NCBI GenBank assembly: GCA_965178125.1
Contig: OZ237749.1
Span: 372,001 to 436,000 of the forward strand
Direction of reading: 5' to 3'
Source of the DNA: Bilabrum cf. latius
Taxonomy: Eukaryota
Length of the DNA stretch: 64,000 nucleotides
Part shown: piece by piece, positions 4,906 to 55,521 of the stretch
Layout: each line of letters begins with the position of its first letter
Position numbering within the stretch: position 1 is the first letter of the stretch
The notes under the pieces: model-generated
Database searches by the model: none
What the model was told of the DNA's origin: nothing
What the model saw: the letters and a program-made list of their open reading frames with translations, nothing else
Made by a program: the position numbers and the translations under genes

Positions 4906-6150
4906 ATGTGGTTGCTATTGACGGTTCAAGTTGCTGTTGCAGCTGCAACTTCTTTGCGTCAGCAGCCCGGGCCTTGGCCCAACTGTTCACATGCAGGCTT
5001 ACCAAAGCAATCAATGTATGCTATCAAAGTACTCGACCGATACGCAGCGGCTACGCTCGGAAGTTAGGCGCTCATCTCGATGCAGAACGGCAGCAGCGCG
5101 TTCAATTTCTCTTTCAATGCGGCTTGGTTTCCGTCTCCGAGAAGCAATGATCTGAGCAGAGATGCAGGAGGCGGACTCATTGTTCGGGCTGTAGAATGCA
5201 ACCCTAATCACCACCCATGCCCCAAAGCAAAGCACCCGGAATGGTCCAACGCAGGTGCACTCGCGGCAGTCAACGCAAGCTTTGACCAAGAGGTACCCAA
5301 AGCTGGGTTCGTGGGGCAACACAGCATATTTTGGGCAGGAGTTCCTCCTCCGCCATCTTCCAATTAGAGCCGATGGGGCGCTGCCGACCCCAGAATCAGG
5401 TATCGGCCGAGCAACGGCGTGTACTACTTGACGTGGGACAACTGCACGCGCAACTGCTACCCCACCCGCTCGACCATGCTGTCAACGACGAGAACTCCTA
5501 TGATTCACGATTCGTGGACCTTTCATGGCCCACTGCTTCCTGGAGAATACACGGGAGGCGCTGCCCTCCTGTTCCGAGACGAGCACGAGCAGGATTCGGA
5601 ACATTTTGTCAGTGGCAAGCAGCAGCAGCTGCGGGTGGAAGCGCATAGCAAGCACCTGGCATTCGTTTCTGATTCTAATACGGCCCATGCTATCCTCCTA
5701 GCCGAGTCATCTGACGGAATCCACTGGGAGCTGGCCAGCGACCCTGCCCAGCGCACGTTCATGGAAGGTAGGAGGGGCTGCTGGGACGTGTCGGGGGTCG
5801 CACCCGGGCCCCAGCCGGAGAGGCTGAGCACCGGTGACTACTTCATGGTGTACAACATCGACACGGGGTTTCCGTGGAAGGGGAATCCGCTCGGGCGGTG
5901 CGCTGTGGGGTGGGCGATTCTAGACGGGTAGGACCCAACTCGTATCGTGGCTCGCTCGGACGGCCCCATGCTGCTCGCATAGGCGCCATGGGAGCAGTGT
6001 CTGTAGGAGACGTATGCTTGCCAGGAGACAATGGTGGTGTTCTCCACCGGGATGAAGCCGCTCGGAGGGGACGAGTTCATGGTAGTGTACGGAGGCGGTG
6101 ACACGGACGTTGGGATCGCCAAGGTTAAGGTTGAAATAGACAGCATTTAA
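4906..6150 (+). CDS. Secreted GH130-like (five-bladed beta-propeller) glycosidase/phosphorylase, about 414 aa
   Basis: Starts with signal-peptide-like MWLLLTVQVAVAAA. Motifs WGAADPRI..YYLTWD, GVAPGPQP.RLSTGDYFMVYN, VGWAILDG.DPTRIVARS and VVF..G....GDEFMVVYGGGDTDVG. There are five in-frame TAGs (5065, 5365, 5929, 5980, 6004). Ends at TAA 6148-6150. Confidence 0.75.
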
Positions 6151-32409: not shown

Positions 32410-35400
32410 TCAGAACAGGCTATCCGCTCGCCCCCCGCCCCCTCCATTGCCTCCGCGACCGCGACCACCACCGCGATTATCACGTCCCCTGCCTTTGCCC
32501 TTCCCGCCTTTACCACCACCACGGCCCCTGCCGCCGCGGCCACCATCACCTCGCCCCCTCGCCTGCTTCGGTTTGTTGTGCCCCGTATCACGTAGGTGAG
32601 CCTGCAGCTACTCGTGGGTCTCGAACGGCCTGTGGCACACGTGGCAATCAAAATAGCCCCCTTTACCTTTCTTGCCCTTCCTCTTGCCACCCCCGTCCCT
32701 CGCTCGATCATCCCAGTCCCCTCGATCATCCCAGTCGTCGTCCCTCCTACCCCTGCCCTTGCCCCTGCCCTGGCTGTGCAACTGTCTATGCACCTGCCCG
32801 GCTTCCTTCCAGTCCTCGTCATCTTCATCTTCATCCGCGTCATCACTGTCGTACCCGTATCCCACACCGTCATACGCCTGCACAACACGGTCCTCACCCA
32901 CGAAGAGCTTGGCCAGCTCAGGATAGGACATGGCCGCCATCTCGAACTCGTCAAGATCCAGCTACCTGTTGCCGTCATGGTCAAACGCGCGCATGATCTG
33001 ATCCGCGGCCCTGGCTGCCGAGTCCTTGCTGTGGTCCCCCTGGGTGAGCAAGATTTTCATCAGCTCGTCCTCTCCGATCGTGCCGCTGTGGTCGGCGTCG
33101 TACGCCCGGAAGGCCATCCGGATCTTGTCCTTCCTCGTGCCCTTCTGTTTTGTCGCAGCCCATGCAAGGATTTCGGGGACACTAATCGAGCCGGAGCAGT
33201 CCTTGTCGATGGCACGGAAGAGTGCCTTGGTCTGCTAGAAGTTCTTGGCGCCCTCGATGTTGAAGTCGTGCAGGAATTGCGTGAACGCGGTCTTGTTCAG
33301 CTGCTCGATCTTGTGCCTCTAGAAGTAGCTCACCACCTTCCGGATCTGGTCGGTGTTTGGCAGACCCCTGTCGCCGTAGTTGCTGCGCATCATGCTCGCA
33401 ATCTCGTCCGCGGCGCCGCGGTTCCGCAGATCGGGGAGCTTCTTGAGGGGCCGCCCCTCGGGGCACCTCACGATCAGCCGAAGCTCGGGCAGCATCTCGG
33501 TGCGAAAGTAGTCGATGGCGGCTTTGAGCTCGTCGTCGTTCCGCACGGCGCGGTCCGGGTTGATGCTGCCCTTGAGGCTGTATGCGATTTGGAGGTGTGA
33601 CCTGCCCGTCGTCGCTACGCTCCCGGCGCCACCCTTGGCCGCCCCAGCCCCGCTGCTGCTGCTCGCCATGTCGAATACCCCAGCGGCGTCAACGACGCGA
33701 TACTCGTACAGGTGCTCGATATACGCGCGCACTCTCTCAAACGACGTCCTGGAGTCGAGCTGGAAGAACCTCGTGTTCCTAGCGTCATCAGCCGCACTCA
33801 CCACGCACTCCGCGACCACACCCGTCGATGCAGTCCCGCTGTAGGCTCTCAGATCGGCGTCCATCGTGCTTGAGATCTTCAGCGCCTGCTCTTTGTCCAT
33901 CGCCTCGCGCAGCTTCGCACGAGTCTCGCCGTAGCGCCGGATGGCTGCGTCTGCGCGCATTCCGATGTCGCGAGCATCCTCCACGCCTGCCTAGTGACAT
34001 GCCAGCATCTCGTCTCGCAGAGCAACGAGGAACTGCCCGATGTGCGCCTCGACCACCTTTCCCTCCTCGAACATGCGGCGCCTCCTTCTCGACTCGTCGA
34101 TGATGATCTGCAGGACAGCGTTCGCGCGATCCACCAGCTCGGGCTTCATGAAATGCTTGAGCTGCGGCGAGGGCCGCCCGCCTCCGTCGACCCGTTCCTT
34201 GGTGATAGACCTGACGAAGTACTCCATCGCAATGAGAGAGTGCTTCGCAAGGGTCGTGTTGTACACGTACGACGCGATGCCGATGGCCTCCTTCACGTCC
34301 TCGTCCTGCCGGCGGTATTGCTCAAGGGACTGGCTCATCGTCTCGAGCACGCCGCCAGCGATCAGCTTGCGACACGTCGGCGCGTGCAGGGCGAGCTTTT
34401 CGATGATGACCACGGACCGGACCCTGAGCTACGGGTCTTTCTTGACGAAATCGACGAGCAGGCCCAGCAGCCTGGTGTGGCTTCCAATGGCGGCGCGCGG
34501 GTCGAGCTCGATGGTGCTGGTCTTTCGGGTGGAGAGAGATGTAAGGCACTGCAGGGCCTTGAGCTTGACCTCAGTGGACACGTCGGGGTCCTGCAGCACC
34601 GGGATGATCGCGTCCTGTATGAGACCATTGGAGAGGAACGGGCTGGGCTTGAGGATCATCCGGAGTAGCTTGTCGCTGTTGTTTGTGAGCAGCAGAGCGA
34701 TGAGCTGCAGGATGCTTCGCACGAACCTGGTTGCTGCGAGTCTCGACTGCTCGTGCTCGCTGTGCAGGTGCCTGGGCCGCGCCCTCTCTAGCAGGAACCC
34801 CCAAGCTCCCGGATCGGTCTTGCTGCAGGGTAGCAAATGACAGAAAGCGTCGCACAGGTTTGTGAGGTGTCCGTAGGTTGACACGAGCTGCTCGGGGCTC
34901 CTCGTGTCCAGCTTGTCCAGCTGCAGCCGCTTCAGCACCGTCACCGTCAGGAGAAGGCCACCCATCTTATCGTAAGCCAGTCGGTCCAGAGCGTGCGGGG
35001 GGCTGCCGTGGCCGTGTCCGCACATGATTGCAAGGCACTTGCTGATTGCTTCCCGGTTTACCGAGGGCTCGGGGTGATCGACATCGCTAAGCCGCTAGCA
35101 GCACACTTTGGCGATAGCATGATTTTCCGTGAGAAATATGCGAAAATCGGGGGCTTCATCTCCAGCAAACGAGGCCAGAGCGCTGAGCAGCTGGATGCAG
35201 CCCAGACGCACGCTGTGCTTGCCACACGTGGTGCCCAGCCTCACAGCGACGTGCACGAGGGTCTCCCCGGATCGGGTGATACGGCTCCGAAGCATGGGCA
35301 CCCTCGTCTCTTTCCAAGCATTGGACACGTGCCATGTGCTCGTGGGCGGCAGGTTCAGGAATCCAGGCCCTTGGGCGTACATGCGCAGGACCCTGAGCGA

Positions 35401-36481
35401 CGCTAGCACCGCGTTGACGAGGGTGACTTCGCCGAGCCTAGACATGTCGCTCGAGGCGTAGGCGAGTATCCGCGCTGCGTGGTTCGGGACGCCGGCATCC
35501 TTCACGTACTCGAAAGCTGCCATGACGAGCTTCTGCACCCTTCGATCCTTGGTATGGCGCGACCAGTCCGACGCTGCCTCGATCACATGGCAGACATGGT
35601 TCATCCCTTTGAGTTTGCCGGCAGGGTCCTTGCCGCTGATGGCAGCCGACACTTTGTCTCTGATCGGCTTGTTTGCGTCGCTCACGAAATTCTCAAGGCG
35701 CTTGAGGTTTTCTGCGCGAGCCTTCGCCTCTTCTTCCGCCTTGATCTGCCTCTCGAAGGAGTTGAGAGCGGAAGACTCCTCCCCGTCGCTCGCTGCCGCC
35801 ATCGCCAGCCGCATCCTGCCCTCGGCATCAAGGCTGGCATCGGAAAGGTCAAACATGGCGCGAATGTCGTCCAGCACGCGTCGGCGGCTGACGACTTCGC
35901 CGGTTGGGTCGTCATCAGCCCCCCCGGATGCGGACCGCTTCGCCCCGCGGCGGCGCGGGGAAGCGGCAGTTCCAGCGAGCACAAAGCCTTGCACGCTCGA
36001 GAAGAATTCTTTCTTGTTGATCGTACCATCGCCATCCGCGTCAATTTTCTCCATCAAAGCCTGAAGCGCTAGTGCTGAGACGGGCCTACCGGTGAGTTTC
36101 TCGACCATGGCTGCGGTGTATTCGAGCAAAACAAGACAGCAGCAAGCCATGATAGATTTGCGTCAAGCACAACTTTCAACCAATTGTTGCGGAACGCCTG
36201 CCAGCTTACATTTCAGTTCACTCGATGATACATCACCAGATCCGTCACGATCTGCCACAGCCCATACCTGCGCACAACTACAGAGCTAAAAGCAGTATCC
36301 ACCCAATGGATCCACCAGGCACCATGGAAACCCATGCACAAGATGCCACAACTCTCATGCGGGCACAAACATCTATTCTACCATCTATCCATACCTTCTC
36401 CATCATTTCCTCAAGCTCTACAGATGATGCGACAGGCCCTGACTTCTGATCAGAATCGCCGGCTTGCATTTTTGATGACAT
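32410..36481 (-). CDS. Multidomain Ca2+-binding protein: N-terminal EF-hand pair, ARM/HEAT-like helical region, possible PB1-like domain, C-terminal EF-hands, C2H2 zinc finger and RGG tail (introns 36268..36394 and 36111..36209)
   Basis: EF loops DRDGSGDVSSSE, DADGDGTINKKE, DKDCSGSISVPE, DADHSGTIGEDE and DHDGNR.LDLDE. Zinc finger CHVCHRPFETHE.LQAHLRDTGH and a GRGG-rich tail. Seven TAGs. Two canonical introns restore the frame. Ends at TGA 32410-32412. Confidence 0.82.
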
Positions 36482-36973: not shown

Positions 36974-39900
36974 ATGCCTGGACAAATCAATATCTGTGCC
37001 ATCCTAGACAGTATGAACGCCATTCTATATGGGGCTAGCGGTGCTTGTAGGTTGTTGCAAGCCAAACTGGGAGCAGTATTCGACATGGAGAAATCTGCTC
37101 CCATTTCGGAGGTATCATTGCTTGGTGCATGGCTTCATGGCGGTATTCATCTTGAAGATCTCTCGTTGCACCCGCGTCCGACCGGGATTCAAGGGCTGCG
37201 CGTGAAAGGAGGTAGTTGTGAATCTCTCAAGATTGCTTTATCTGGCAACGTGGAGGTGCGAGGGCTCTGCGTTCGTCTGGATGCCACCGAGCTTGTCTTG
37301 CAGAGCATGCAGCGCGCACCGCGACGCGGATCCTCAGCGAAAGAAGCCATACACAGAATAATCAATGCTTGTATTGTGCAAACTATGGCGCACAATCTGA
37401 TTCACGATGCGATCGGCACTTGCGTAAGTTCTTGATATTGGAGTGCATGGGCAACTGCAACTCGATTGCTGCATTCCGAACCATTGTAATCCCGCTTGCT
37501 GGATGCCTCGCAGTCTAGAGTGGAGGTGCACGAGTTAGAGGTCGTCCTGAGGCTCGTAGGGGATCAAATCGCAACCACCCAGCAGAGTCCGGTAGTATCG
37601 GCTAGGATCAATCATACGACGACTACACAAGCATTTGATACCAAGACAGGGAGTCCCCGTTGCAGAGTTGCAATGCGAGATATACTTGTGACTTGTGGTT
37701 TAGTATGGGCTGGTCCAACATCGTCCCTTCCGGAATCGAAGTCTACTGCCAGCGACTCCTTGCAGCCTGCACCAGCAGGGGGGGATGCATCAGCACCAAG
37801 CATGGCGGGAGGAGAAGGAACCGGTGATGATCAGGCAGCTTCCGGTCAACCTAAAGGCTCTGTAGAACACTGTATCGTTCGGCAAGCTCTGAAGGCGACC
37901 TGCAGGCAGGCGAACATCACGATCACGTCCGCGCTGCACCTTGGATCAACCGCAGAGAGATCACACGATCCATCAACCAGTGTGCCTGATGCTGAGAATC
38001 CGGGAGATGAAACATCACGGTCATCGCATTTGCATTCAAAGCTTGATCCAGCGCCCCTGACAGCTGACATGAACCGAGAGGCACAGGCATCAGCTAGCCA
38101 AGCGTCGCCCCTTTCTGATCGACAGCCAGGTATATCCGTTGAAACTGAATTGCGAGGGGTACGGTTGCTCCTGGGTAACACATCTGATATCGAGGCCTTC
38201 ACGCGCTCGATTTAGAGCAGGCAAGATGTCCCCAGTCATGCTGCTGTCCCTGCTGCTGTCCCTGCCGCTGTCCCTGCTGATCTCCCTGCTGATGTTCCTG
38301 TTGCTGCCCCCGAGGCAATTGAGCCCGCAGATGTCGTAGACCGCGCGGCAGCGCATATTGCGTCTCGACTGCGCGATCCTGCAAGCATTCCTGGCATACA
38401 TTTTGCTATCGAGGTAGTTTCAAAGCTTGCGGCTGATGCCGGCGTCTCTGAGGCAGCGGCACCCAGTGCAGCGCCACGCACTGCAAGTTCAGCCCTCGCA
38501 GACCCTCACACGGACCTGGGGCTATCTTCGTTTGAGTGGTTGACATCGATGCCGTCTGCATAGAGCGATCTGGCGTCCAAGTTGCGCTTATTGAGCCGGA
38601 TCTCTTCGGCCCCACTTCGCACCCTTGCGCAAAAAGGGCTAGGACAATGGAAGCAGGCAATCTCCATGGAAGATGTGGAAGGAACAGCGGATGTCGAGGC
38701 TGTGAGCTTGAATAGGGGGCTTGAAAAGCCTGCCAAAGCCCCTGCATCGGCACGGTCCAGAAGGGGACGCTCATCGAAGCACAGCGGGGCTGCCCCGAGG
38801 GACCCGAATGGCCCTTCTTTAAGCGAGTCATCCATCAGTCGCCGGAAGACAGTGCGGGTTTCGATGCTTTGCAGTCAGGTGGATATTGACGGGAGTATGG
38901 GGTATCGATTTGTTCGGCCTGTCGATCACTTTACTGCTGCAGGTTGCTTGGTGCACTCCACTGCAGCTAGTTTGCGCATCAATGGCAGCAGGACGATTGC
39001 ACGTCGGCTGTCAACAGGTGGTAGGAGTGGAGGGAGTGGCGACGATAGCATCGCGATCATCTGGGATGCATTGGCCGATACCGATGAAGGGGGTTCATTG
39101 GAGGAAGCTGCAACAAGTGGCGCTTCGGAATCGAAATCTGACGAAGTTGGTGTAGACCATGCAACCGTCGGTGGTACCACCGCTGCTGGCAGCGGTCTTG
39201 AATCCGAGCCAGTACATGGGCACCACGTAATCCAGGCATCGGTAGCCCACGAATAGCGCCTATGGATTTGGGCTGCATCGGAAAAACTCGATACGGGGTT
39301 GGGTGCCATGGATGCCTCCTTGGTGATTTGGATACGAGCTTCGGCGGCCTGTATGGATCTGCCATAGTGGTCATACGATGCAATTCCGCCTGCACTGCAC
39401 GCGGTTGAAGCTCTTGCGCTGCCATTATCGCGACTTTTCAAAACCGCGCTCAACGCGACTAGCGACGGTCCAGGGTGGTTACCGCACAGCGCGCCGATTG
39501 CAGTGCGAATTGACGCTGAATGCGGAAACGTCAAGGTACAGGCGCCCCGCCAGGGCACACAGCACCAGCAATACGATGTAACTCTTGCATGTGGACCAAC
39601 GCGGCTAAACGTGCTGTCAGTTCGTCGGCAAAGCGCTGCCCTGTTATGCTCCCAGCAGCTCGTGTCCAATGCGGCAGTCCATACTGAAGCAGGCACAGGC
39701 TCGAGCCCGGCGCACGGCTTGCCCGCAAGCGGTGCAGGAAGCAGCAGTCCAGGCTTGCAGCGGCCAGATAGTTGCAGTTCAGGTCCGAACGATAAGCTGT
39801 CCGCAGCTTTGCTTCGTGATGCGCTGATAGCTGTTGCGTAGGATCAGGTGCTATTTCTAGAGAAACGCAGTGATGAGCTGCCATTTGTTGCAGCTAGTCG

Positions 39901-42900
39901 GCAGGGTGGCGTAGCAAGCCGTAGGCTGCAGGTACCATTGCCTACCATCGCGGTGCACGCTGAGAGCCGCGCGGTTCATGGAGCGATGCAACCTGCCTCC
40001 GGCAGGTCGTCTTGTGCGATTCGAATTCCTAGCTTGGACACTGAGAGAATTGTTATCGCATCGCTTCAGTTCTCTTCTGTGTCTGCAGCAGTTGTAGAGG
40101 TAGACCACCCGAACCATGCATCTAGCCCAGAGGTGCAGGCGACTGCTGGATACGGCTGGGATGGCCCCATGCGGGTGCACCTGACGGGCGTATGCTTTGA
40201 AGTGGGTGGTCTAATTTCTGCATCTCGAGGTCCCGATCCGTTGACACACGGTGCCAGTAGCGGTGCTGTGAAGTAGCCCGAGCTCCCACCAGTGAGTCGT
40301 CCATTCCCAAGGCAGTATTTCTTGGCAAGCTGTGACAAGTTGCACGGTGAGCTCACATCTCCAGCAGCTGCTGTGGTTCTGCGGACCCTCAATACAGCCG
40401 CTGGCACGGCCATCATCGTTCTCGAGTCCAGTCCATCGATGCAAGAGATTGTCACGATAGCCTCGAAGGAGGGGGCTAGGATCACGCAGAGAAGGGGCCG
40501 TCCCGAGAGCCTGGCTTCAAGGAGCCTGGTCTCCTGGCGTCTGGATCAAGCGAACGCGACACTTAGACCAGACTTCGGAGCTAGTCCGAGGAAATAGGCG
40601 AAAGCGATGGGATCGGTGGGTATACAAGGGCTGGCTGCCAATATTGATTTCACAAGTGTCGACTCTGATGCCTAGTTTACGATGAAGCAGCTGCAGGTAC
40701 GTGCTGCCGTGTCCCCGAGACTCGACGCCTCTCGCGCGTGCGGTGTTCTAGACGGGTCGATCGGCCTCGACCTGCGAGCATCTCTCAAGCAGGCTCGGGT
40801 ACCATAGGTGCAGATCGACGCCAGGATACCGTGCGCGGGGCTGCTGCTTGTGCGGGGGTCTCCAACCCGAAAGTCCTTCGTGGATTCGACGACGCGCGGT
40901 CACAATACCGATACGGCTCACAATGGCCGAGATCAACACACATTCGATACGATTTTGTAGCCGATGAACGTTCGCCTACATGCTGATGCTGCACGATAGT
41001 CTCGAGAAGACGGCTCGGAGGTCTGGAGCTGGGCTCACCGCATAAACTTGCCGAATGTGGTCGTCGCTGCTTCGAGCGCGGATGTCGACTACATTCTGCA
41101 GTTGGTTCTATTTGCCCAAATACAGTTGGCGATTCTTCGGTAGTCAGGTACTTAGGCAGCCGAGCGCGTGCACCAGTTCCGCAACCTTATACGAAGTAGG
41201 CTCGGCATTGACTAGTCTGTGAATAGCAGGACATCAGGGAGGATGGTTTCGACGCTGAACGGGTCACGAAGAACAATTGGGCGCGCATTCTAGCAAATGA
41301 TTCGGCCATCCGTTTCTGGCCGGCGCAGCCGACGCAAATCGTTATCGTCTTTTCATGCTGGTGTCATGCGCCGGAGATCGGCGGCACTGTCATCGACCAG
41401 AGCGTAGCGTGGGCAAGTGGCTAGTCGCCTTGTTCCAGCGCATGTTCTAGACCATTCGCGCAAGAATACGATACAATCCGTCGAAGTGCGCACCGGCCAC
41501 GTCCGAATCGCGGTGCACAGCGATGTCACCGCCGTCCGGCCGGCTCTGATCCGGCTGTGGTTAAACAATATCAGGCTCCAATCAGACGGGGAGAGTTCAT
41601 CGCTGGTTGCAGAGGCAGCTGCTAGCTATTTTAATCAGCGGTTGGAGTGCTTTGAGCCATTGATGGAACCGTTCACTTTCAGTGGTCGAGTCAGTTCCCA
41701 GGTGGTACGAGGCACGATCACTGCGCAACGCATCACTGCAGCTGTGTCGACTGAGGATCCCATCAGGTTTGTCGTGTCGCCTTCATTTGTGCGGGTCGTA
41801 ATGACTGCAATAAACGAGACGACAACGATGGCGCGACGAGTTTCCAGGACCTGGAAGCGAGTCAGGAACTCAGCATCGTCAACGTCGGCCTCAGCTCTAG
41901 CAGAGCTTAGGGGTGTCGACCCTAGACGATTGAGCTCAAACTTCGCCAACGTGCACGTGCGCAACTTAGGCAACCAGAATGTTGGCGGCATTCGCCTTCA
42001 CAAGCGCGGTGAAGACAACTAGATGGTCCAGATGGTGGCCGGTAGTACAGTATCCCTGAAGCCAATTGATACGCGTACAACCAGCGATGCGCCATCCAGT
42101 ATCGGTGGTGGCATTGACATGGATTATGGTGTAAACTTCGGCCTCTCAGCGGGTCCAAGCTCCATGTCGTTTGCTGCTCGCGGTTTCCATGGAATCCTGG
42201 AAGGTCTCTTCCGGTACGCAGGCCAGCAGTCCGTGCCGCATGGAGCGGTTAGTCGCCGGATCCGCGATTGCCCCGAGTCGTGGGGAACGACTTCTAGAGA
42301 GACTTCCAGGCTTCAACTGCAGCTTACGCCGATGCACTGGAAGAAGGGGGCCGTACTCGACAGGCGTGATATGCTGGTTCGTCCCGGTTGCGCACCAAAG
42401 TACGACCTCGAGCAGGAGCTTAGACGAGACGCTGAGGGAGCATTCAGCACGGCGCCGCCTGATGCCCGGGCAGCTGTACATGAGTTTGTCCGTAGGTATA
42501 GAGGCTGCTCATGCCAATTCCTTACTACCATGAATGGGATTCTGCAGCGGCAAGACGGCTCTTCTGTCGTGGACGTAGTGCCGTCTGCGTGGCTGTCCAA
42601 CAACCTCTCATCTGCGATTGAGATAGGTACTTGCACAAGCTTGGAGGGGCATGTTCTGGCATAGTACCCCCAACTCGTGAGTTTCTGGCGTGGGCCAGCT
42701 GAACGAGCAATCGTTCAACCCGGATCAACGTTTAAGTTCAAATTTGACTGCGGCTCGCGCCCAGTCGTTTGGTTTCGGTTTGCGGACTCGGCCGGTACAA
42801 CAGCTGCTGCGAATCGTGTAGATTCTCCTGCGGTAGCTGTGGAAGCAGCTGAAGCCGTGGTGCCAGGCGTATCTACAGCTGCGTAGCCTCCGAGCCAATT

Positions 42901-45900
42901 GCCAGAGCAATCGCCGTGGATGTGTTTATTTGTTGACGTGTCGATGCACGGTAGCCCCGCGAGCTCGAAGCGGGCAGCGAGATGTCTTTTGTCACCGCAC
43001 ATGAACAACGCGGATGCGCTGGAATCCCGTGACATTCAAAACGCAGAACAGATGCTAGAACGGTGTGTCTAGAAGGACTCTGCGGTATTTTCTCGTTCCT
43101 TGCAGCAGCAATGGCAAGAGGCTATTGCTGATGTGCATAGGTCCATGTCCAGTTTCGGCGGAGCTCTTGATCTCGAATAGGTTGCTGGTGCCCTTGAGCA
43201 CCCGGGTGGCCCTGCAAAGAATCGGTCGCTTCACTTTGTGTGCGCTGGACACGCACGAGCAGAGGCTGGGAGACTCCAGAGGCACAGTGCGCAAGCAAGT
43301 GCCTTCCCGAGAAACTTCCTGATGACTGCTAGAGCGGTGTCTTTGAACCCGTAGCATGCTCCAGCTCTGCAGTCTGATCTTGCTGCAGGTATGAATTCTC
43401 AGAAACTGTACGCAGATTCCATTGAACTGGTGCTGGAGCCATCCGTTGTGATAGTAAACGAGCTGCCTCGAGCTGTCTCGCTGTCCGTGTCCGCCACAAA
43501 CGCACTCGATCACGCCTCAGCGTCGCTGGTGGCACAGCTCAACCGTAGAGGCGCCATGGAGGCCCCAAAGCCAGATGTGCACGTACTGTAGGCAACAGTC
43601 GGAGCAGGAGGAGAATTTGGAATCGCCGGTCTGCTCGACAAGGTCAGGTGCTTGCCACCGCCACTAGTGTACGGCAGCTAGCTACAGCAGCCAGCAGATA
43701 ATGCGAGTGGTAGCTGGGGAGCGAGTCATCTCGGGCAAGAATCACCGTACCAAGGCATGTCAAGATCTGGCGCACGAGACGTGTTTCGCAGCATGTATCC
43801 CCTATCAGAGTCTAGCACCGTGATTCAGCTAGCGGGCGTGCGGCCAGGGTCTCACCCAGCACAGCAGGCGGCCATCACGCAGTCGCTTCGATTCACTCGT
43901 CAAGATATCCTGGGAAGCTTGGCGGTGTCAGAAGCACTGTATTCGTACTTGCAGCACCTGTTCTAGTCTCATCCCGATGGTGAGGCCGGGGAGCTAGAGC
44001 AGGGCAGCCGGCCATCGCTTCTACAACGGATTTTAGCCGGTGGTATTGCAGCCTACCGTGAGTTCACCACGAAACGAGAGGATTACAGCCACGTTGAGTC
44101 GTTAATGCTGGCAATTCGGTCCCGGAAACCACTAAGCCAGCTCAGCCTGCAGGTGCGATTCCCTAGCAGCCCCGTTGGCTACCATTTGGTTGACGAGCTG
44201 TTCCGCCCTTTGCCGTTCAAGCTAGTGTGCAGGCGAAGGCGTAGGTATAGAGGTGCGCAATTTAGGCCAACAATGCCGGTATCTTGGCGTGGTACCGCAT
44301 TAGAGACTGACTCTGACGTCTGCAGCACTACTGCGATCGTTCTAGCATCTGAGGTGCAGCTACAGAACCTAGGCAGCATTCAGCTCGTCTTCTCAACACT
44401 GTTCCATGAATAGCCCCGTGCGGTGCCAGCTCCAGCTGTGGCTGCGGGACAGAGCTGCATCACCAAGCTCTAGATGTATGAGTATGAAGAGAGAGAGGGT
44501 GTGCTAGAAGCAAAGTACAAGAAGATTGGGTGGGGCGTTGAGGGTGGGCCCATCCTTCCTAGTCTTTCGCCAGCGCTCGTCAGAGATCGTCTTATTTCCT
44601 TTGGTACGCACGATAAGGACGGTGATGTTTCGGATGACAACGATCACAACAATGGCAAGCAAGCCGGCCCAGGGGCTGCAGGTCTATCGACATCCGGTAT
44701 TGGGCTTCCAGGAGGGACGCGTCGGGCAGTTGTAGATACCACGCCCAGCAGTTCCGACATTAGCAGCAGCCGGTTGCCGTGGATTGTAGAGGATGCCTGG
44801 CAGACTTCACGCTCACTTGAGCTGTCTAGCTCATCTGTGTTTCAACCAACTAGCTTCGTATCTGAAGCAAATTGGAGAGGCCCGGCTAGAATCATGTTTC
44901 GTCGACGTGCAAATAGCCTAACTGTCTTGCCAGCCAGGCAGTCTGGCCGGCCAAGTGGTCTAGTGGCTCTAGGCAGCGCTAGAAATGACAAGGAGCTGGA
45001 GGAATATCGTCGCAAGATGATTGGCATGCCGACGGAGCAACAGCAGTATCACGTTTTAGAAGGACCCCCCGCTGGCCTGTGTCTCTGTATTGGGCACGCC
45101 CATGCCATTGCAGAGGGACGCCAAGGCACTGGCCCATCGAGTGGGGCGGGCGCTGCAGGTGGCTCCCCAGATAAAGCCAAGGCATCACCACAGTCAGCAG
45201 GGGGACAAGTGTGGGCTGCAAAGGTCCGTCTTGCTGATCTCGTTAAAGGGCCCATGCTGGTTGCACTTGGCGGGCCTGGGAGTGTCGCTGAGGCGGCTGG
45301 CACACACGTGTGCATGGCAATGGTGCCCGGCGGTATCGCTCAACGTATCATTCTTGAGTCGACCACTAGCAACGAAGAAGTTGATCCCACAGTCACGACA
45401 GTGAGTGCATCAGGTGGGTCTAGCGGCAGGGTCTCAGTGAAGACGTGGCGCCGTGCCGCGGCTACTCCATCCACTGCCGTTGTGCTCGTAGCGCCACCCA
45501 TCTTACTGAAGAATGCAACAAATTTTTCCCTGCGAGTGAGGCTTATTGCAACGAAAAGCGAAGATGCACACCATCAGAACTCTTCTGCTCCTCGTCGGAC
45601 CCGCGGTCCGACCGCCCGAGTGTAGCCAAAGCAGCGCGTTTCTGTTTATTCATTGCCTAATGGACCACGGAGCGAAGTTGCGGCCGTGGTATAGCTGCTT
45701 GATCCAGTTACAGGCACGCCTGTATCTTTTGAGTCGCCAAATCTGCTATTGAACGGGAATCGATCGGTCGAGGCTCGGGTGGCTTTGTCGGGCGTGAGTG
45801 GGGGTCACCTGCATAGGCACAACGGTGCAATCCTGCAGATGGAACTCACCTAGGATGATGTGCTCGGGACGTGCACATTGGTTCTTAAAACCGTGATCGG

Positions 45901-48900
45901 GCTTGCAGAACCCATGAGTATGATTCTTCGGCAGGCTCCGTCAGAGTTCACCGTTGCAAGGCGCGAGGACAGCGATGCGCAGCAGCCAACAACTGTTCCA
46001 AGAAAGCCTAAATGCGAGATCGTGAACCAGACGTAGTCGTGGTTTCTTGTGTGCGCAGTGCGCCATGCAGCCGTGCCTTCAGCCAGACACAAGACGGTAG
46101 GAACGGATGGGACCAATGCATAGCAATGGCTGCAGCCGTGCTCCATGGTTGGAAGACCTGTTTTTGTCCCGCCGGCTGGCAGCATCCCTTTCGGTTGGGA
46201 TTCTCTGGACCCGCTCAACATGAGCGCTGTGCTTGTTGTGCCCGTGCTTCGCTCTACAGGCTCAGAGAGTGAGAACGATGGAGACGATGCACCCGTCAAA
46301 ATGGTAAGTGTGTTTCCACCGGACGTTCGCAAGGTCGCTCTGCCTTTTCGAAGCTTAGTGGTCGATGCATCAAGCGTTCCTGAACGAGCGTGCGTCATCG
46401 AGAACGAGTCCGTTTTGCTGTGGCCGGATGGTGCCGGCACAGATGCAAAGTGTTCAGCAGTTCCTGTATGGGTTACATTGCGAAGGCAAGACGCATGGAC
46501 GGCATCCACAGATGACGCAGTGAGCAAAACCAGCGTTGCGATGGATGCTATTGGTGCAAACACAAGTGAGCCAGCTAACGGTGCTAGCACCAGTGAGCCA
46601 GCTAGCACCAGTGAGCCAGCTAGCACCAGTGAGCCAACTAGCGGTGCTAGCACCAGTGAGCCAGCTAGCACCAGTGAGCCAGCTAGCGGTGAGGATGGGT
46701 CAGCTGCAAGTATTTAGGCCCTCGGGGGTTTGGCAGACAGGGTAAGGAAAGCCTATCGCACTGCAGACACGCAACCTCTTAGCGTGGGTGAGTTGGTTCG
46801 GATTTGTTTCGAAGATCCCATCACTGGCCAGACGTTGGTACTGGCCAGTGGTCCTGGATCACAGGCACGTGCAAACGAATCAGCCTCGGCACCAACTGCC
46901 GCAATGGGAGAGAAGTTCAGCTCTACTGGTGCAGACTCGGCCGTTGGAGTGCGTGATGCTGCGATGCAGTGCATGTGGTAGTCTGCTGGTGGATTGAACA
47001 GCAACATGCATGGTTTAGGTTCAACTCCAGGTAACGATAAAGTATTGCCTCTTGAGGGTGGCAAAAAGGAGCATCCAGTTGTTGATCTGTCAGCAAGCAA
47101 AATAGCTGCCGGGTAGGAGACGGGTGCTGCTGATGGCGCACCCCGCCCGGCGACACTGCCCCAGGGCACTGTACTCGAGTTTGAGCTGAGGCCAGTTGAA
47201 GCTGGCGGTAAGTTGCCCAGAGTGTCTGCAGTCCGCAAAGAGCTGGAAGACTCAAGACTTGGCCTTTGGTGCACCTCGAAGCCGGGTTGGCTGCACGCAC
47301 GTCCAGACGGCTCGCTGCTTGTGTCTGGTTCTACTAGCGACGGACGAGATAGCGAATCACCTGTTACAGTATTGGTTCATTCTAAGCTCCGGTCTTTCCT
47401 ATAGGATGCAAGACCCTCCGGGCAGTCTGCAGCTGCCGATTTTGGGCCAGCTTCAGAAGATACTACCGATACGACTGACCTACCGACTGAAGAAGCAGCG
47501 ACAGCCTCAGGAGTTGTGACGCGCGTCACCAGCGAGTTTGCACTGTGTCGTCGGCCCCGGGTTCGCACATTTGCCAGAAAGGCTGAGGTGTTCTGCGTGA
47601 CCGATGGGGGTCGCACCCAAGTAGTCATCCGAGGTACCGGCACAGACATGTCAAGCTCCAGGAAGGAGATGAAGAGGCACCGGGCAGCAAGCAGTACCGT
47701 ACGATCAGCGAGCGTTGACAGAAGACACCGAAAGAGGAGAAGTAGAGCAACGGGAGGCGATGAATCAAAAGAGTAGCCACGTCTGCCTTGGTTGCCACCT
47801 GTCCTGCAGCTCTAGCTGCCATGGGTTGATACGACGATTTGCGGGACTCAAGGGCGAGAACAGCTAGCAATACATGCGATGGGCGTAAATTTATCGATTG
47901 TTGGGGGAGCGCGACCCACCAGTGCTGTTCCTGTCCCTTTTTGGAACTTGCTTAGCATTGCCCTTGACGTGGATCACTTGCAAGTCGACCACACGGCGCC
48001 CATTGAATCAAAGCTGGGCGGATTTCCTGTTCTACGGAGAGACTCGAAGCTGTTCGAGTAGCGTTCGGATCCCGTGCGAGGAGGACCCGTTCCCGACCTG
48101 CGTATTGTAGTCGGTATGCCAGTGGGACCGGGCAGCCGAACAACAGCAGGTGAGAGTAGGATTTCCAACATCACCGTGGGTCTGGCTCCCATGCAACTCA
48201 TGCTGAAGCTGTCGACGATGTCTTCATTCATTGGATGGTGGAAGGAGGCCAGTGGGCAAGTTGATGCGAGTCCGGAGGAGCAGAACCAGCCTGGTATCAT
48301 GCAGGGGGGGTTGCACGGTGGAAGCAGCACCAGATCCCCACAGCGTCTCAGAGCGCGGTTTCCACTGCAAAACGGCACTATGAGCGTGGAAGAAGAGGAA
48401 GTTATGCTTCAAGCAAGCCAGGATCGCAACTTGGCAGGCAATAATGTCCACTATAGCGCACAGTCTCCCGGCAGAGCAACCGCGTCGTTGTTCTAGCGCA
48501 CTGTGGTAGAGAACTTTTCTTTGCTTCCCGTGGAGCTGGTCGCATCCGTGCGACTAGCTGACCTGGATCCAGGGGCTTCAGGTGCTGCTCAAGCGCATGT
48601 ATTGCAGGCAATGGGCCTCCCTGCGTTGAACACCCTCGCTCAGCTGACGAACATTTCCAATTGTGCCATTCGCATCGACGGGCTGGATATGCGCAAGACA
48701 AGGAGGAGTCTATCGGACCTGCGGCAGATTCTTCATGCGCATTTGTACGGGCACGGGCTATCCATCCTTGCCAGAACGCTCCTATCTGTAGATGTATTCG
48801 GAAATTGGTAGGACAGCGTGAATCGGGCCGCAGGTGGACTCTAGAGAACATACCGTACATTCGGTGACCTTCGAGAAAATGGCAGGATATATAATCCCAT

Positions 48901-51900
48901 TGCTGTTGCTGCTGCCGCCCTTTACAGCGCATCCCAGATTTCTGGCTCGCTAATCGCTAACGTTTCCGGATCCGTCGCAACATCGATGGACACCGTCAGC
49001 GCTGGGGTGTCTCACTTGGCTGTTGATAGGGACTATCTGGAAGAGAGGGCGCACGTGGCGGGGAGCAAGTCCAATTCAAGCGCAGTCGATGACCTGTCCG
49101 CTGTGGCTGGTGAAATTGCTGGGGGCTTTGTGGGTGGGCTGATGTCGGTGCCACAGCAGACTGGTGCTGGTTTCCGAAGCGGCGGATTCGCTGGCGCTAG
49201 TGTAGGCTTCCTGACGGGCTCGCTGGGCACTCTGGTAAAGCCAACGGTTGGCTTGATTTCCGGGGGCGCAAGGTTGTTTTCAGGCGTCACGAAACTCCTT
49301 GATTCCCAGCTAGCACCAGAGGTGACCACTCGTGGTATCGTGCTCCCGAATTCGTGTGGAATACTGCTGACGAATCCCTCGCAATATGGAGGCAGTCCAA
49401 ACCGCATAGCGGATGCATCCGGTGCGGCCGAATCTCGCCCACCTGCGTCTGGTGCAGGCGGGAGAGACGATCGCGGCATCAGTGCAAGTCGCCAAGCATC
49501 GAGCAGCGATAAGTCAAGCGAAGCCGACGCCAAGGCACGAGAGCAGAGGGACACAGTCCGATATCGCAGAATAGGATGGGGTCCAGGTCATGCCGTGGTG
49601 CCCATTCGCGCCGACCACGCACTCCTTCGACTAATACTAGGAAGCTTGCGAGATGCCAACGGATCGGCACGCACAACCCAGGTGTCTAGGGATGGACCAG
49701 CCAGCCCCCCTGCGCGAGCTTTGGAGGGCAGGCGATCCTGGCTGTCCTCGGTAGGTTGCTCCCTTTCTCCGGGTGGACAGGCTGTCGTAGACTCGCCACC
49801 GACGCTGCATCGCAACGAAAGGTATGTTTCGCACTTTGTGTGGCCGACTGTAAGTTTCTCTTCACTGCTGGATGGTCTCCCCGGAGCAGGCAAAGGCAGG
49901 CACGTGCTGCAGCTTGATCGCAGCAACGACAGGCTAAGCATGAGCGTCATGCTTGTCACTACAGATCGAATCATGCGAGTTCGAATCGACCTCGATATGT
50001 GTTACAATGGCAGCAGCATGTACATTCCGTACGAAGCTGTGGCGGATATGAACATTGACAAGGTGCTGATCGCCTTGCAGCTGATTGCAGGCGCATCACC
50101 AGAGGGTTGGGACCGCGTGCTACACGGCGCCTCTGTGGAGTTTGAATGGACAGTGGACCTGGCTGGAGATGTAGCGCAGGGTCGGCACAGACACGAAGAA
50201 GAGACGCGGCTGCAGCAGGTGTCTGAAGACGTGAACCTGGCCATTGAGGCCATACTTGGGTCTGACCTCGAGGCGCAGACAGCGCGGGGTTCCATGATCT
50301 ACCGCGCTTTCCACTCATTCTTTTGTCAGATCGGCGGCACGCCATCCAACAAGGTTGGTGACTTGCCGGGTCTTGGAAAGCCGCCAGCAGCCGAACGAGT
50401 CTCCAGCACTGGATCAACACCAGCTAGCGGCTCCAGCGGCGCCGCGGCGGCCGCTGCTCCAAGCATAGCTGGTATTGCACGGCGGCCGCAGCTGAGTATG
50501 GATGACCTCATGCGACCTGTGGCCTCGAGGCCCGTGCCACAGGCCAGCATGCGGTGCGATTTTTCGGCTGATGCTGCGAGGCTACTTACGCAGCATTCCA
50601 ATCGCGCGATCCGAGCAGTGGAGGAGATCACCGGGGCCCGCATCGAAGTGCTCCCTGCGAATGACCTCGACGGTCGGGGCCCTAGAACTGTTGTCATCAG
50701 CTCGGAAAGCGTTGATATGTCAGAAGCTGCCAGGGACGCCCTGTATTCGAAAGTCGGCGCCTTGCGGGCTGCTATCGATGCCGGCGAGGAGACAGAGTCC
50801 GCCTACACTCGCATTCTGCCTGGGCCTGGCGGGGCACTGACGACGGAGGAGGAGGATGAGGATGTCGCCGCAGCTAGTTGTGCTACTTCTTAGAGTATTG
50901 CTGGACAGGGTCTGGGATACGGGGCTGCCAGTACCGCTAGACTGGCGACCAGCAGTACGTCTGTAGCAGGGTTGCAGGCTATGAGGCTGTTCTCAGCGAC
51001 TGGGGGCTTTGCTGCTGGTGCTATACCAGAGGTAAGCGAACCATCGTTGTCTCCCCGCATCAGGCGCAGTGCTGGGGAACCAGCCGTTGCTTTACTAGCG
51101 TACAGGCCGCTGTTCCACCCCTGGGCTGTAATCGGTCTGAGCCTTTCGTTTGAGCGAAAGTTTCGAGCGTGGCAACGCCAGGCAGATGCACTGAGGCGGC
51201 AATTGGAGGCGCTGCGGCGCTCTCGGTAGGCCTCTGGTGTGACCAGTACGAGCGGTGCTGGCGGTGCGCTTGCTAGCTCAGGCATCAGCGGTGAGGGTGG
51301 TGACGCCTCAGGTCATGGGTCGGGCCTTGATCCCATGCGGCCCTGGCTTCGATTAGTCGACGCAGAAGAGTGCGACCTGTTGCAGCTAGCGGCTGCGGAG
51401 GTTGCGACCGGTGAGGACGTAAAGGTAAGAGGGAAGGAGCCCAGGGGCATGATGCCGCTTAGCACGTTCGAGGCTCTTGCTACGGCGGACCTCTCCGAGC
51501 CTGTCGCTTGCTTGCAGGCCATGGATTGTCGGCTGCATCCTGCTGCAAACAACGTCTTGTTCCACGCCGCGTACCGCCGCGCCATCGTGCGATGCACCGA
51601 GGCACACGATTCTGTAAGGATGGTACAGAGTGGTGCTGGTTCTGGTGCTGCTGGTGGTGCCCCTGCACGCGACATATTCGAAGAGGAAGGCATTCGACAG
51701 AACCTTGTCTCTTTTCTTTTGCTACTCGCGAGGCCCTCCCGCTTGCTCGAATGCATATTTTTCGCTCGAGCGACCGTAGCTCGGGAGAGCCTAGCTGATG
51801 AGTACCGCACCTCGGGGCACGATGAGGTCGACGCAGGCATACGAGAGCTGCACGATTCATTGCGGAGGGGGCTCGGGACGATTTTTGCTGTGCTTGAATT

Positions 51901-51919
51901 CGTTAAGTCTGAAGCGTGA
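36974..51919 (+). CDS. VPS13: VPS13-family bridge-like lipid transfer protein, about 4950 aa (intron 37424..37513)
   Basis: Chorein-N-like start (LLQAKLGAVFD..WLHGGIHLEDLSL..LRVKGG), ASYFNQRLECFEPLMEPF, VAB-like PILLKNATNFSL and PSVVIVNELP, FGWDS, and ATG_C-like GF..GSLGTLVKPTVGL. The 14.4-kb second exon is open in one frame apart from about 45 TAGs. Ends at TGA. The start may instead be 37013. Confidence 0.88.
46560..46690 (+). repeat. 18-bp coding tandem repeat GCTAGCACCAGTGAGCCA (ASTSEP, about 6 copies) in VPS13
   Basis: Directly visible. Confidence 0.9.
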
Positions 51920-52205: not shown

Positions 52206-53012
52206 ATGTCCGATACAACGCAGCCAAAGCTTCAACGGTAAGGTTATATGTATGTTTTCGAGTGGTCCACTTTTGCCGTTGCTTTAGGTGACGCGATGCT
52301 TTGACATGTTCGACTTGGCTATGAGGAGCGCAGAGCAATTAGATATATTCTCAAGGAGCAAGGTATTGAACACTTCGATGATGGGGTCATGGAATAGCTC
52401 ATGGATGTCGCAACTGGATATGCGTCTGAGCTGCTCGGAGAATGCGACAGAGTTCGCAGATACTCTGGAATACCGACAGTAGACCGGTTCGTGGCCGAAA
52501 CTGCAACTGATCTCGTCTAGTAGCGATGTGTAGCACCTGCAGCGTCTCGAGAAGACTAGCTCGCGGAGGCATTGGCTATAAACGACCGTCCGTTCGTACC
52601 GAAGGTGTCAGTGTCTCCGGCATACCCGACAGGGAGCGCCTGCCTGCTGCCGGTGCTGCCTGCTTCCCAGGACAAGCCTGGATCAAGGGCACTAATTCAA
52701 TCAGATGCATCTTTGACATATACAAAAGAGTATTACTTGCTGGATGAGCACGTCAGAAATCTGCGCAAGGCTTGGAGAGTAGCTTGCGATATTGAAAAAG
52801 AGAAGCGAGATAGAGACGGAAGCGCCGGCGCTCGCCCAGCCGGCAGGGCACCCACGCAGGCAACGGGAGCTGCAAGTTTTGCACCGTCCCTGTAGCGAGC
52901 CAACGCTGCCACGCAGTCACCTGCTGGCTCGGCAACGTGGTCACCAGACACCGGCAGTTTGGACCCAACAGCCGGGGGGGCTCGGAGAGGAGGGACTGGC
53001 GCGCCTGGCTGA
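52206..53012 (+). CDS. TAF9: TFIID subunit TAF9 (TFIID-31 histone-fold), divergent (intron 52238..52333)
   Basis: The spliced product reads PKLQRAIRYILKEQGIEHFDDGVME*LMDVATGYASELL...SRED*LAEALAINDRPF. This matches the TAF9 pattern I..IL...G...Y/F...V..QL(L/M)(E/D)....Y...L ... RE.L...A...N..P. Five TAGs. Ends at TGA. Confidence 0.75.
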
Positions 53013-53301
53013 CCCCGGCCAAGTTCTAGCATCGAGTTGAAGCTGTTTCTAGCTTTGTTTAGGTTTTAGCTCTGAGCACCGATTGCCAGCCATGCAACAT
53101 GCACCGCACAAAATGCCTTATGCAGTCGTCACGACTGCGACTGCTGCGCTAGCATGCAGCCTCCGCACACTGTGTAGAGGGTATTTCTATCATCGCGACC
53201 GTCACGTGTTTCGATAAACAACCAATCAACCCAACTCGTGGTCATCAGTACTCTCACACAGCGGTGTTTGGCACTGAATGGCAGCGGCAGTTTAGTTGAA
53301 G

Positions 53302-54741
53302 ATGTCTGATACATCCACCCAACAGGATGATGAGGATCTCCTCGCTGAATTTGATGATTTACTTGACAATACAACTGCTCATTCTGGCAGTGTCGTTGCA
53401 GGTGGCACGCCTGTGGCTGCGGCTGCAGATATCCAGCAGCAGCCTATCGGGGCTTCCTCTGCAGCCTCCACACTGGCGCCGGCAGGTGTACCACGAGTTG
53501 CCACAGCTGAAGAGGCTAACGCCGCATTCAACTTTGACCCGGACGCTGCATTGGCTGAAAGTCGCGACCACGTGAGAAGGTCAATGCTTTTGAATCCGTT
53601 GCAACTGTCCCGTGTGAGCGAATGCAATTCTAACCTTGGCACCACTAATACGTCGCAGTTTGACAGATTATTTGCAGCTGCGGTCAGCCAGCGGCGAGGT
53701 GATGGCTCCAACGGGGCCAGGCTGGTACCGAATGCAGGTTCTCCGCCGTCCGACGCTGCGGGCCTGGCTGTTCCAGCCGTATTGCCCGGCGGTGCATCAA
53801 GCTTGAGCCAAGGCTGCATGCAAGCTGACGCTGATTCTGACGATGACGAGGACGCCGCGACGCGGTCCATCCGAGCGCAAGCAGCTCGGGCAGCCTCGGC
53901 ACTCGGGCAGGCGCAAATGGAGAGGCGCAGGGCGAGGGAGCAGATCCGCAGCGGGGCACGGGCGACGGAGCGAGCCGAATTCGATAGGGCAATTTCACAA
54001 GCCGGGAGCGTTTGGGAGGTTGAGCGGCTCCTGAAGCGCCGCCAGGAGCAGCAGCGCGTGGACCGCGAGGCTGCGTTCGAACGCGTGCGGGCGGCTGTGG
54101 CAGCTACCGATGTCGACTTCGAGCATGTCCGGGACGCCGCCACAGCTGCCGGTGGCTCCGAATAGGCAGTGTAGTCTGCCGTACTTGCGACCACCATGCG
54201 CAGAGCAGCTGCCATACGGGCGAGCACCTAGCAAGAGCTCGCCGACGCAAGAGCAGTTTCGAGTGAAACGCGAGCCCGTGCACAGGAGGCTGCCCCGAGC
54301 GGTACTCCCTCCGGCCGCGCTGCTGCTCCTGCTGCCACCGCTCGGGAAAGGGGAGAAAGTACATTGCATCGCGACGGCCAAGCCTCTGGTTCAGGCTGCT
54401 AGATGGGCTCTGGGATGCAACACGTTCTCGCTGGCATCGTTGGCCGCAGAGGCACCGAGGCAGACACCCCATTAGGCAGCAAACCTGAGGTGGGCAAACC
54501 TGAGGTGGGCAAACCTGACGAAGCGCCATTCTCCGGCGAGTCCGTCGATGGCTCAGGTTCCACAGGCCCTTGTCGCCCGGAGAGCCTTGAGACGGCGCTC
54601 GAGGAGGCAGACAGGAGGGTCCTCGAGGACACAACAGCGAGCGCGGATAGGGTGCATGGCGCGGTGCTGCGGCAGATCCAGAGCGCGTTCTCCGGACCCG
54701 GAGTGGAAATCGAGGGTTTGGCCGTCGGAGAGTCGGGCGAG

Positions 54742-54779
<38 letters not shown>

Positions 54780-55257
54780 GGGCGACGGTGGGGATCCTGT
54801 GAGCGCTGCTGCTGCTGCTGCTGCTGGTGGTGGTGCTGGACAAGGACCGTAGCGTGTGGGTGGGCCAGCGGGTGATGAGGGCAGGGTAACAGCATTCGAC
54901 ACCGCGGGGGGGCAGGGCCTCGTTGGATTCCTCGATGAGAGGCAGGGCGCGGCACTGGACCAGCTGCTGGACGAGCTCGGGGTTCCCGTTCCTGGTGACG
55001 ACTAGTCTGGAGCCGTCATGACAGGAGCCGAGGATGTAGGTGGCGGTGGGCTGACTGATGGCGGAGCCGCGAGGCAGGGTGGGTCCTCTGAGCTCGCAAG
55101 CGTTCTTGCGATGTTGGAATAGGAAGCAAGGGGGTCTAGCCGGGCGCGCAGTGCGCGGAGATCTACCGGCAGGACCCCGGCAAGGGGTGCTGTGGATGGC
55201 GCGGATGTGTATGCGGCATCAAGCTCGGGAGCCAGTGAGGGCAAGTCGCCCCAATAA
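53302..55257 (+). CDS. Uncharacterised Ala/Gly-rich protein, about 650 aa
   Basis: MSDTSTQQDDEDLLAEFDDLL... continues in one frame through about 6 TAGs (54163, 54172, 54400, 54850, 55003, 55120) to TAA 55255-55257. Confidence 0.7.
54742..54825 (+). repeat. Two (GCT)n poly-alanine microsatellites
   Basis: Directly visible. Confidence 0.9.
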
Positions 55258-55521
55258 TTCGTCAGTTCAAAGTGAAGTAGCTATTTAGAGCAAATACGTC
55301 GCATCTTTCAGACAGATCGCAAAAGGCCACTGAGCCGCAATTCGTGCTGTGGCAGTCTTCATCCGGGATCTAAGCAAGCGCCCAGGGTCAGCGAGGCGCC
55401 GAGGCGTCGCAGCAGAGCTGAGTAATGCTACCTCGAGAGCGACGGGCAGCCAAAAAAAGTCTCCAGCACACAACAGGCCAGAATTCACATGAAAATAGTG
55501 ACCAAGCGGTGGAAAGCGGCG

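Follow-up and report, generated by a model that had tools for sequence, protein, structure and literature searches.

Nuclear genetic codes in which UAG and UAA carry different meanings are rare. The code in which UAG alone specifies glutamine (National Center for Biotechnology Information (NCBI) table 15) is reported from four taxa named in the parts of two sources drawn on here (PMC11687900, PMC5304391): the ciliates Hartmannula sinica, Trochilia petrani, and Protocruzia tuzeti, and the fornicate Iotanema spirale. UAA and UAG together (UAR) encode glutamine (table 6) in many ciliates, Hexamita, Streblomastix, ulvophyte algae, and the aphelid Amoeboaphelidium protococcarum (PMC11687900). UAG is read as leucine in the rhizarian exLh and some phyllopharyngean ciliates, and as serine in Scotinosphaera (PMC5304391, PMC11687900). 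Within the coverage of PMC11687900, stop-to-glutamine changes are by far the commonest reassignment reported, and a one-base change of the glutamine transfer RNA tRNA-Gln(CUG) has been argued for Iotanema (PMC5304391). This report concerns a stretch of 64,000 nucleotides (nt) attributed to Bilabrum cf. latius (assembly GCA_965178125.1, contig OZ237749.1, positions 372,001 to 436,000, forward strand), hereafter called the window, whose genes contain many in-frame TAG codons, and in particular a TAF9-like gene in which one such TAG stands at a column where glutamine is found in other TAF9 proteins.

TAG is a sense codon in the window, where it occurs within genes that are conserved and apparently expressed, and TAA and TGA stop translation. 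The longest open reading frame (ORF) has 1,191 codons when all three standard stops are applied and 4,809 codons when TAG is read as sense; a run of 4,809 codons lacking both TGA and TAA would arise by chance with a probability of about 1e-37. Fifteen ORFs, picked as the longest or as domain-bearing (the choice and some of the 5' ends are ours), together comprise 17,528 codons, including 107 TAG, 506 CAG, and 160 CAA, and every long ORF except one contains TAG. In-frame TAA occurs twice in these ORFs: at codon 11 of one ORF, before its likely start, and at codon 660/665 of the gene beginning at 53278, where it is the likely stop. TAA is thus not a sense codon, since gene bodies hold none of the roughly 34 expected if it were used like CAA (CAA:CAG 160:506), and since it ends the GH130-like gene. 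Of these ORFs, 14 reach their 3' end within the window, and each of the 14 terminates at TGA or TAA (TAA ends one or two of them and TGA the others). The most likely meaning of UAG is glutamine, with UGA as the usual stop and UAA as the other, the arrangement of table 15; we give this reading a probability of about 0.8.

The original prediction, a model's note made from the sequence, had placed a TAG in frame at 52395-52397 (GVME-TAG-LMD), at the conserved glutamine of TAF9. The codon lies exactly there, in a two-exon gene with the following parts:

52206..52237, + strand: exon 1 of the TAF9-like gene, 32 nt, with ATG at 52206
52238..52333, + strand: intron, GT..AG, 96 nt, skipped in one contig each of runs X5, X7, and X8
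52334..53012, + strand: exon 2, with TGA at 53010-53012
52395-52397, + strand: the TAG in question, codon 32 of the spliced coding sequence, near the N-terminal end of the long central histone-fold helix

The spliced coding sequence (52206-52237 plus 52334-53009) has 236 codons, followed by TGA. Positions 52386-52406 read gtc atg gaa TAG ctc atg gat, and the frame gives ...EHFDDGVME[TAG]LMDVATGYASELLGEC..., or DDGVME[TAG]LMDVATGY immediately around the codon. Exon 2 contains five in-frame TAGs, at 52395, 52518, 52521, 52557, and 52893. Support for the splice comes from Logan contigs of runs X5, X7, and X8 (studies P2 and P4), which join 52237 to 52334; the intron-less contigs cover 52333-52802 (X7) and 52333-52976 (X8), contain no other letters, and keep the TAG at 52395. 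Four GT..AG (or CT..AC) intervals are missing from the contigs of these three runs, at 37424-37513, 52238-52333, 53572-53658, and 56904-57075, and a contig of run X6 passes unbroken through the last of them. Because four separate introns are missing from their contigs, X5, X7, and X8 are probably derived from complementary DNA (cDNA), their RNA status being a guess. The window is matched by contigs from another four runs, belonging to three other studies, with one other letter listed in 20 kilobases (kb) and no strain variation seen. Near-identical sequence (37400-57399) occurs in runs of three other studies under three organism labels other than that of the source. The source may be a culture strain in wide circulation, or it may have accompanied or contaminated samples of other organisms.

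The gene is a divergent TAF9 homolog. With TAG translated as glutamine, the protein matches Pfam PF02291 (TFIID-31kDa) at 32.7 bits and E=8.9e-8 (31.8 bits in a second scoring), above the curated cut-off of 29; with a neutral X at every TAG it scores 27.9 bits, under the cut-off, over residues 2-88 and profile positions 11-97. The match extends on both sides of the TAG at 52395, which is therefore not a terminator. An exhaustive phmmer search over 1.84 billion representatives returned only seven proteins, three of them true relatives: P0002 (76% identity, a fragment beginning just past the TAG column), P0005 (56%), and P0006 (33%). A profile built from the window protein and these three relatives found four homologous proteins; P0005, P0006, and a further relative, P0012, carry precomputed PF02291 assignments. 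A single-sequence phmmer search of the PDB with the window protein gave no matches. The profile found human TAF9 there (6mzc_M, E=2.4e-8), TAF9B (7ktr_E, 3.3e-8), fly TAFII42 (1taf_A, 9.4e-5), and 6t9i_F (0.062). An AlphaFold2 model built from five sequences has a mean predicted local distance difference test score of 73.5, with helices at residues 2-8, 16-44, 51-65, and 72-83 in the exon-2 frame; in a Foldseek search of the PDB its top six matches are TAF9 or TAF9B chains, followed by histones, with weak E-values (0.036-0.15) and probabilities of 0.96-1.0. The identification as TAF9 made in the original prediction is thus borne out by the family profile, the human match, and the fold. The 64-kb window contains no TAF6 gene.

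In the profile alignment, the column of the TAG at 52395 holds glutamine in human TAF9 (PRVINQMLEF), human TAF9B, and Drosophila TAF9 (PRVVNQLLEF), and so it does in the relative P0005 (GVVDQLVDF). A piece of 61 residues was scored against PF02291 with this one TAG varied as 19 residues and X, cysteine being left out. Glutamine gives the highest score, at 28.2 bits, followed by M 26.4, H 26.2, K 26.0, R 25.8, E and N 25.6, T 25.4, S and A 25.3, X 25.2, D 25.1, V 24.9, L 24.8, Y 24.7, I 24.6, and W, F, G, and P 24.2-24.3; it is the best of the 19 residues by about 3 bits over neutral and 1.8 over the next. This is the Pfam column check that had been proposed, and it came out for glutamine. The sequence comparison at this column suggests glutamine, as good but modest evidence rather than proof. 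The claim that the glutamine is highly conserved was right in that the column prefers it (in PF02291, human, and fly), and overstated in its degree, given a gain of about 3 bits and methionine in two relatives. One of the two motif examples offered with that claim, RVINQMLEF, is the aligned human sequence; the other, VPLQLLDF, was not encountered in the comparisons made.

Stronger evidence for glutamine than the TAG at 52395 lies in the same gene. A scan of metagenome contigs found a relative of this locus, L001 (14.4 kb), together with L002; a third locus, L003, was a spurious 33% match and was dropped. L001 is syntenic with the window over about 48.1-57.6 kb, and its orthologous proteins are 40% (the C-terminus of a giant gene), 51% (TAF9), 52%, and 73% identical to those of the window. 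It keeps the same ORFs open with TAGs of its own (14 in the ortholog of the giant gene and 5 in TAF9), mostly at different positions, and its TAF9 scores 34.1 bits against PF02291 with X and 38.7 with glutamine. The window TAGs at 52518, 52521, and 52557 face CAG, CAA, and CAA in L001, and TAG at codon 615 of the gene beginning at 53278 faces CAG. L001 also has TAG at the column of 52395, and one further TAG in its TAF9 faces GAA in the window. The resemblance to L001 extends beyond the last TAG in three genes: TAF9, the gene beginning at 53278, and the giant gene.

The residues preferred at TAG columns were also compared across families. The homolog searches gave few proteins. Five domain-bearing segments with about 13 columns were rescored against their Pfam profiles with TAG as each of several residues, minus the score with X. 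The gains, in bits, are as follows:

TAF9 of the window (four TAGs): Q +3.9, L +2.6, T +1.7, H +0.9, A +0.4, K -0.1, S -0.3, R -0.6, E -0.7, Y -1.2, W -2.6
Extra TAG of L001 TAF9 (shared column removed): Q +1.6, T +1.3, E +1.1, H +1.0
SUFU domain of L001: Q +1.6, E +1.6, K +1.0, H -0.1, L -1.2
GH130 (four TAGs): E +4.8, Q +2.8, K +2.7, W +2.1, H +1.2, L -2.2
EF-hand_7: R +4.5, K +3.2, S +2.7, T +2.6, Q +2.4, E +1.6, H +1.1

The totals, summed by hand for the 11 residues tried on every segment, are Q +12.3, E +8.4, K +7.6, T +6.0, R +6.0, H +4.1, S +4.0, A -0.2, L -2.6, Y -3.2, and W -5.8. Glutamine is thus ahead by at least 3.9 bits, and it exceeds histidine in all six comparisons. In the SUFU domain of L001 (domain E=3e-29), PDB alignments place a TAG opposite a glutamine of human SUFU (in EDPQMQ). 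Zinc-finger matches below threshold disagreed in the residues they favored and do not enter the sum. The original reading of TAG as glutamine thus holds as the best one: the gene is a TAF9, and the TAG columns are not dominated by leucine, tyrosine, glutamate, or lysine.

Several observations weigh against glutamine. At the column of 52395, the distant relatives P0006 and P0012 have methionine, and the lead of glutamine over the runners-up is just 1.8-2.6 bits. In other families, the GH130 columns favor glutamate (45.4 vs 43.4 bits), the EF-hand columns slightly favor arginine, lysine, and serine, and a TAG of the reverse transcriptase (TGV-TAG-PE) faces I, I, and L in solved R2 and LINE-1 enzymes. 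The TAF9 TAG at 52557 faces leucine in human TAF9 and methionine or isoleucine in distant relatives. Between the window and L001, four syntenic genes give 35 columns with TAG on one side (two TAG rows from spurious alignments, labeled calp and up, with scores of 37 and 44, are excluded). The partners are five glutamine codons, one TAG, five alanine, five threonine, four histidine, and three arginine codons, two each of glutamate, glycine, valine, and aspartate, and one each of serine, leucine, isoleucine, and tyrosine. Where flank identity reaches 0.5 or more (24 sites), the partners are Q 4, A 4, H 3, T 3, two each of E, D, and R, and one each of S, Y, G, and V. Ordinary CAG/CAA columns keep glutamine in 47-68% of cases, and TAG sites are far less conserved. 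In an empirical likelihood, glutamine leads at the loosest cut-off and histidine ties or leads at stricter ones; glutamate and serine follow (asparagine only at stricter cut-offs), and leucine, isoleucine, phenylalanine, and valine are worst. Finally, a scan for tRNA genes in the window and L001-L003 found none. Glutamine opposite TAG is nonetheless enriched relative to its own frequency, and TAG may preferentially occupy weakly constrained sites that tolerate glutamine or histidine. Taken by itself, the comparison of the two sequences suggests a meaning that is polar, glutamine or histidine.

The best-surviving alternative, to which we assign a small chance, is that TAG is sense but encodes another polar residue, with histidine, glutamate, and lysine as the strongest candidates. 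Histidine (CAC or CAT), though a rare residue, faces TAG at those 4 of 35 sites (3 of the 24 well-aligned ones), an excess for its frequency, and in the empirical likelihood it ties with or beats glutamine at flank cut-offs of 0.4-0.6. It loses to glutamine in every one of the profile comparisons, where the totals are 12.3 and 4.1 bits. A histidine tRNA would need two anticodon changes, and the portions of the literature compared here (PMC11687900, PMC5304391) appear to contain no code in which UAG is histidine. For glutamate there is precedent, with UAR as glutamate known in peritrichs and Blastocrithidia (PMC11687900), and it equals glutamine at the SUFU column and exceeds it in GH130. Glutamate falls below X across the four TAF9 columns, and in the comparison with L001 it lies 8-12 bits under glutamine at cut-offs of 0.3-0.5 and about level with it at 0.6; lysine is never aligned to TAG in that comparison. 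Glutamine is preferred because histidine is weak in the profiles, glutamate and lysine are weak against L001, and only glutamine does well in both.

A second alternative is that TAG has two context-dependent meanings, sense inside genes and stop at some ends, or that it is decoded inefficiently or ambiguously at weakly constrained sites. The low conservation of TAG sites relative to CAG/CAA sites agrees with this, as does the slightly lower frequency of TAG in ORFs (0.0061 per codon) than over six frames (0.0079). The use of TGA or TAA by 14 of 14 ORFs at their 3' ends and the persistence of L001 similarity past the last TAG in three genes speak against it, and the window is without any gene that must end at TAG; we consider this explanation very improbable. 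A shade less probable again is leucine or serine, as in the rhizarian exLh and some ciliates (leucine) or Scotinosphaera (serine). Three TAGs face hydrophobic residues in distant homologs: the TAF9 TAG at 52557, the one in the reverse transcriptase, and GH130 TAG359, which faces methionine in three of five among the matches listed. Leucine is also the runner-up when the four TAF9 columns are scored together, with 30.5 bits against 31.8 for glutamine. In the summed profiles, leucine (-2.6) and serine (+4.0) fall well short of the +12.3 of glutamine; each stands opposite TAG at 1 of 35 sites; the close relative L001 has CAA at TAF9 52557; and leucine is worst or near-worst in the empirical likelihood. 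The weakest alternative is that TAG is undecoded, its presence reflecting pseudogenes, assembly errors, or RNA editing of UAG to CAG: nothing was found in its favor, and it is hardly compatible with 107 TAGs spread through every long ORF but one and without TGA or TAA beside them, with the agreement of four runs from three other studies (1 other letter in 20 kb), with intron-less contigs that keep the TAG at 52395 with 0 other letters, or with a relative whose proteins are about 30-60% diverged and that keeps the same ORFs open.

In the best reading, the window is nuclear DNA of a GC-rich (~59% guanine plus cytosine) eukaryote with few introns whose ribosomes read UAG as an amino acid, most likely glutamine. 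The codon would be decoded by a tRNA-Gln with anticodon CUA, which would pair with UAG but not UAA and could arise from tRNA-Gln(CUG) through a one-base change, together with an eRF1 whose recognition of UAG is weakened. The TAF9 TAG at codon 32 would then be an ordinary glutamine at the start of the central histone-fold helix. An Rfam scan of the window gave no matches, and the 64 kb contain no eRF1 gene.

The remaining genes named in this analysis are the following:

37514..51919, + strand: giant ORF, a single exon of 4,801 codons with 44 in-frame TAGs and no TAA, ending at TGA and following a 5' intron at 37424-37513
53278..55257, + strand: lineage-specific gene with 8 in-frame TAGs, an intron at 53572-53658 (joint 53571/53659), and a probable end at TAA 55255-55257
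4906..6150, + strand: GH130-like gene with 5 in-frame TAGs, ending with TAA 6148-6150 at the domain end, with more in-frame TAAs after it
7352..10294, - strand: ORF of a reverse transcriptase of the non-LTR (lacking long terminal repeats; R2/LINE-like) type, 981 codons with 5 in-frame TAGs
32413..36162, - strand: ORF with EF-hands and C2H2 zinc fingers, with 7 in-frame TAGs (3 in the EF-hand region), ending at TGA
55525-57331, - strand: P2X-like gene (Pfam 24.4 bits, under the cut-off of 27), 73% identical to its L001 ortholog
58019-59410, - strand: ORF of a classical calpain (Peptidase_C2, 178.9 bits, plus domain III), with no TAG
59430-63998, - strand: ORF of a multi-pass membrane and coiled-coil protein, 1,523 codons
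L001 9891-14378, - strand: SUFU-domain ORF, 1,496 codons with 18 TAGs, 105 bits to human SUFU

Contigs without gaps and without other letters cover 40100-44497, 44517-46608, and 46658-51993 of the giant ORF. The giant protein matches no Pfam family at E<=0.001, and a search among shorter proteins for homologs of its residues 3650-4300 returned just one near-identical fragment of 66 residues. Over the last 1,200 residues, at its C-terminus, it shares 40% identity with the L001 ortholog, and this part contains near-identical islands (e.g., RRIGWG..AVVPIRADHALLR). The P2X-like gene has an intron at 56904-57075, whose joints are found in three runs, and its contig depth is the highest in the region. 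Scans of genome contigs with the P2X-like protein and its alignment found nothing, nor did scans of viral contigs with the reverse-transcriptase ORF and the P2X-like alignment. The clusters nearest to the calpain in the atlas are from animals. Its ORF follows the 1,523-codon ORF after 20 nt, in another frame, and the two may be parts of a single intron-containing gene or separate genes packed closely together. The SUFU-domain ORF occupies the place of the calpain gene in L001, and synteny is therefore taken to end near 57.6 kb of the window. A homolog search with the SUFU domain found solely the two fragments of the same contig. Among short ORFs at 25104-26021 (- strand) and 26145-26738 (- strand), none of which contains TAG, two may, judged by eye, be exons encoding a cap-binding protein of the eIF4E type, and a third may encode a MAPEG-type membrane protein.

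In public collections, the TAF9 and SUFU genes of L001 are represented solely by fragments that begin or end at TAG (two of them, P0013 and P0014, for SUFU). Gene callers that assume the standard code fragment such genes, and the genome and its metagenomic relatives therefore need annotation with table 15.

How the window compares with described systems can be considered at the level of the protein and of the code. Like TAF9/TAFII31/dTAFII42, the histone-fold subunit of TFIID and SAGA, the window protein has the histone fold and a following helix, and it shares the glutamine column at the beginning of the central helix. It differs from known TAF9 proteins in being very divergent and in having a C-terminal half without a recognized domain. 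With respect to the code, systems that read UAG as leucine or serine resemble the window in reassigning UAG only and retaining UAA as a stop, but leucine and serine fit the TAG columns of the window poorly. The UAR-glutamine codes share a stop-to-glutamine change with TGA as stop, and Amoeboaphelidium provides a non-ciliate example; in the window, unlike in these codes, TAA is not sense. Closest are the taxa of table 15, in which, as in the window, UAG alone is reassigned, UAA and UGA terminate, and glutamine is the best-supported meaning. The window differs from them in being GC-rich (59%) and in having TGA rather than TAA as its main stop. In the table-15 ciliates covered by PMC11687900, 58-70% of internal UAGs lie at conserved glutamine positions, whereas the corresponding basis in the window is about 13 domain columns only.

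In our judgement the source is apparently unlike a ciliate macronucleus, because of its 59% GC, introns of ~90-170 nt, non-LTR element, calpain with domain III, weak P2X-like match, and the SUFU gene of the relative. Amoebophrya ex Karlodinium was rejected as the source, since its transcriptome favors A/U at third codon positions and it uses UAA and UGA, too, as coding triplets. A full-text literature search, which did not cover supplementary taxon lists, found no published report matching this case. We raise tentatively, and with more doubt than belief, a previously undescribed independent origin of the code in which UAG only becomes glutamine, in a non-ciliate, GC-rich lineage that occurs in environmental metagenomes. 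If so, the code change may be old enough to be common to a relative whose orthologs are 40-73% identical. Set beside the four taxa of table 15, another case, GC-rich and with TGA as the main stop, would be an independent data point on how eRF1 and tRNA(CUA) uncouple UAG from UAA.

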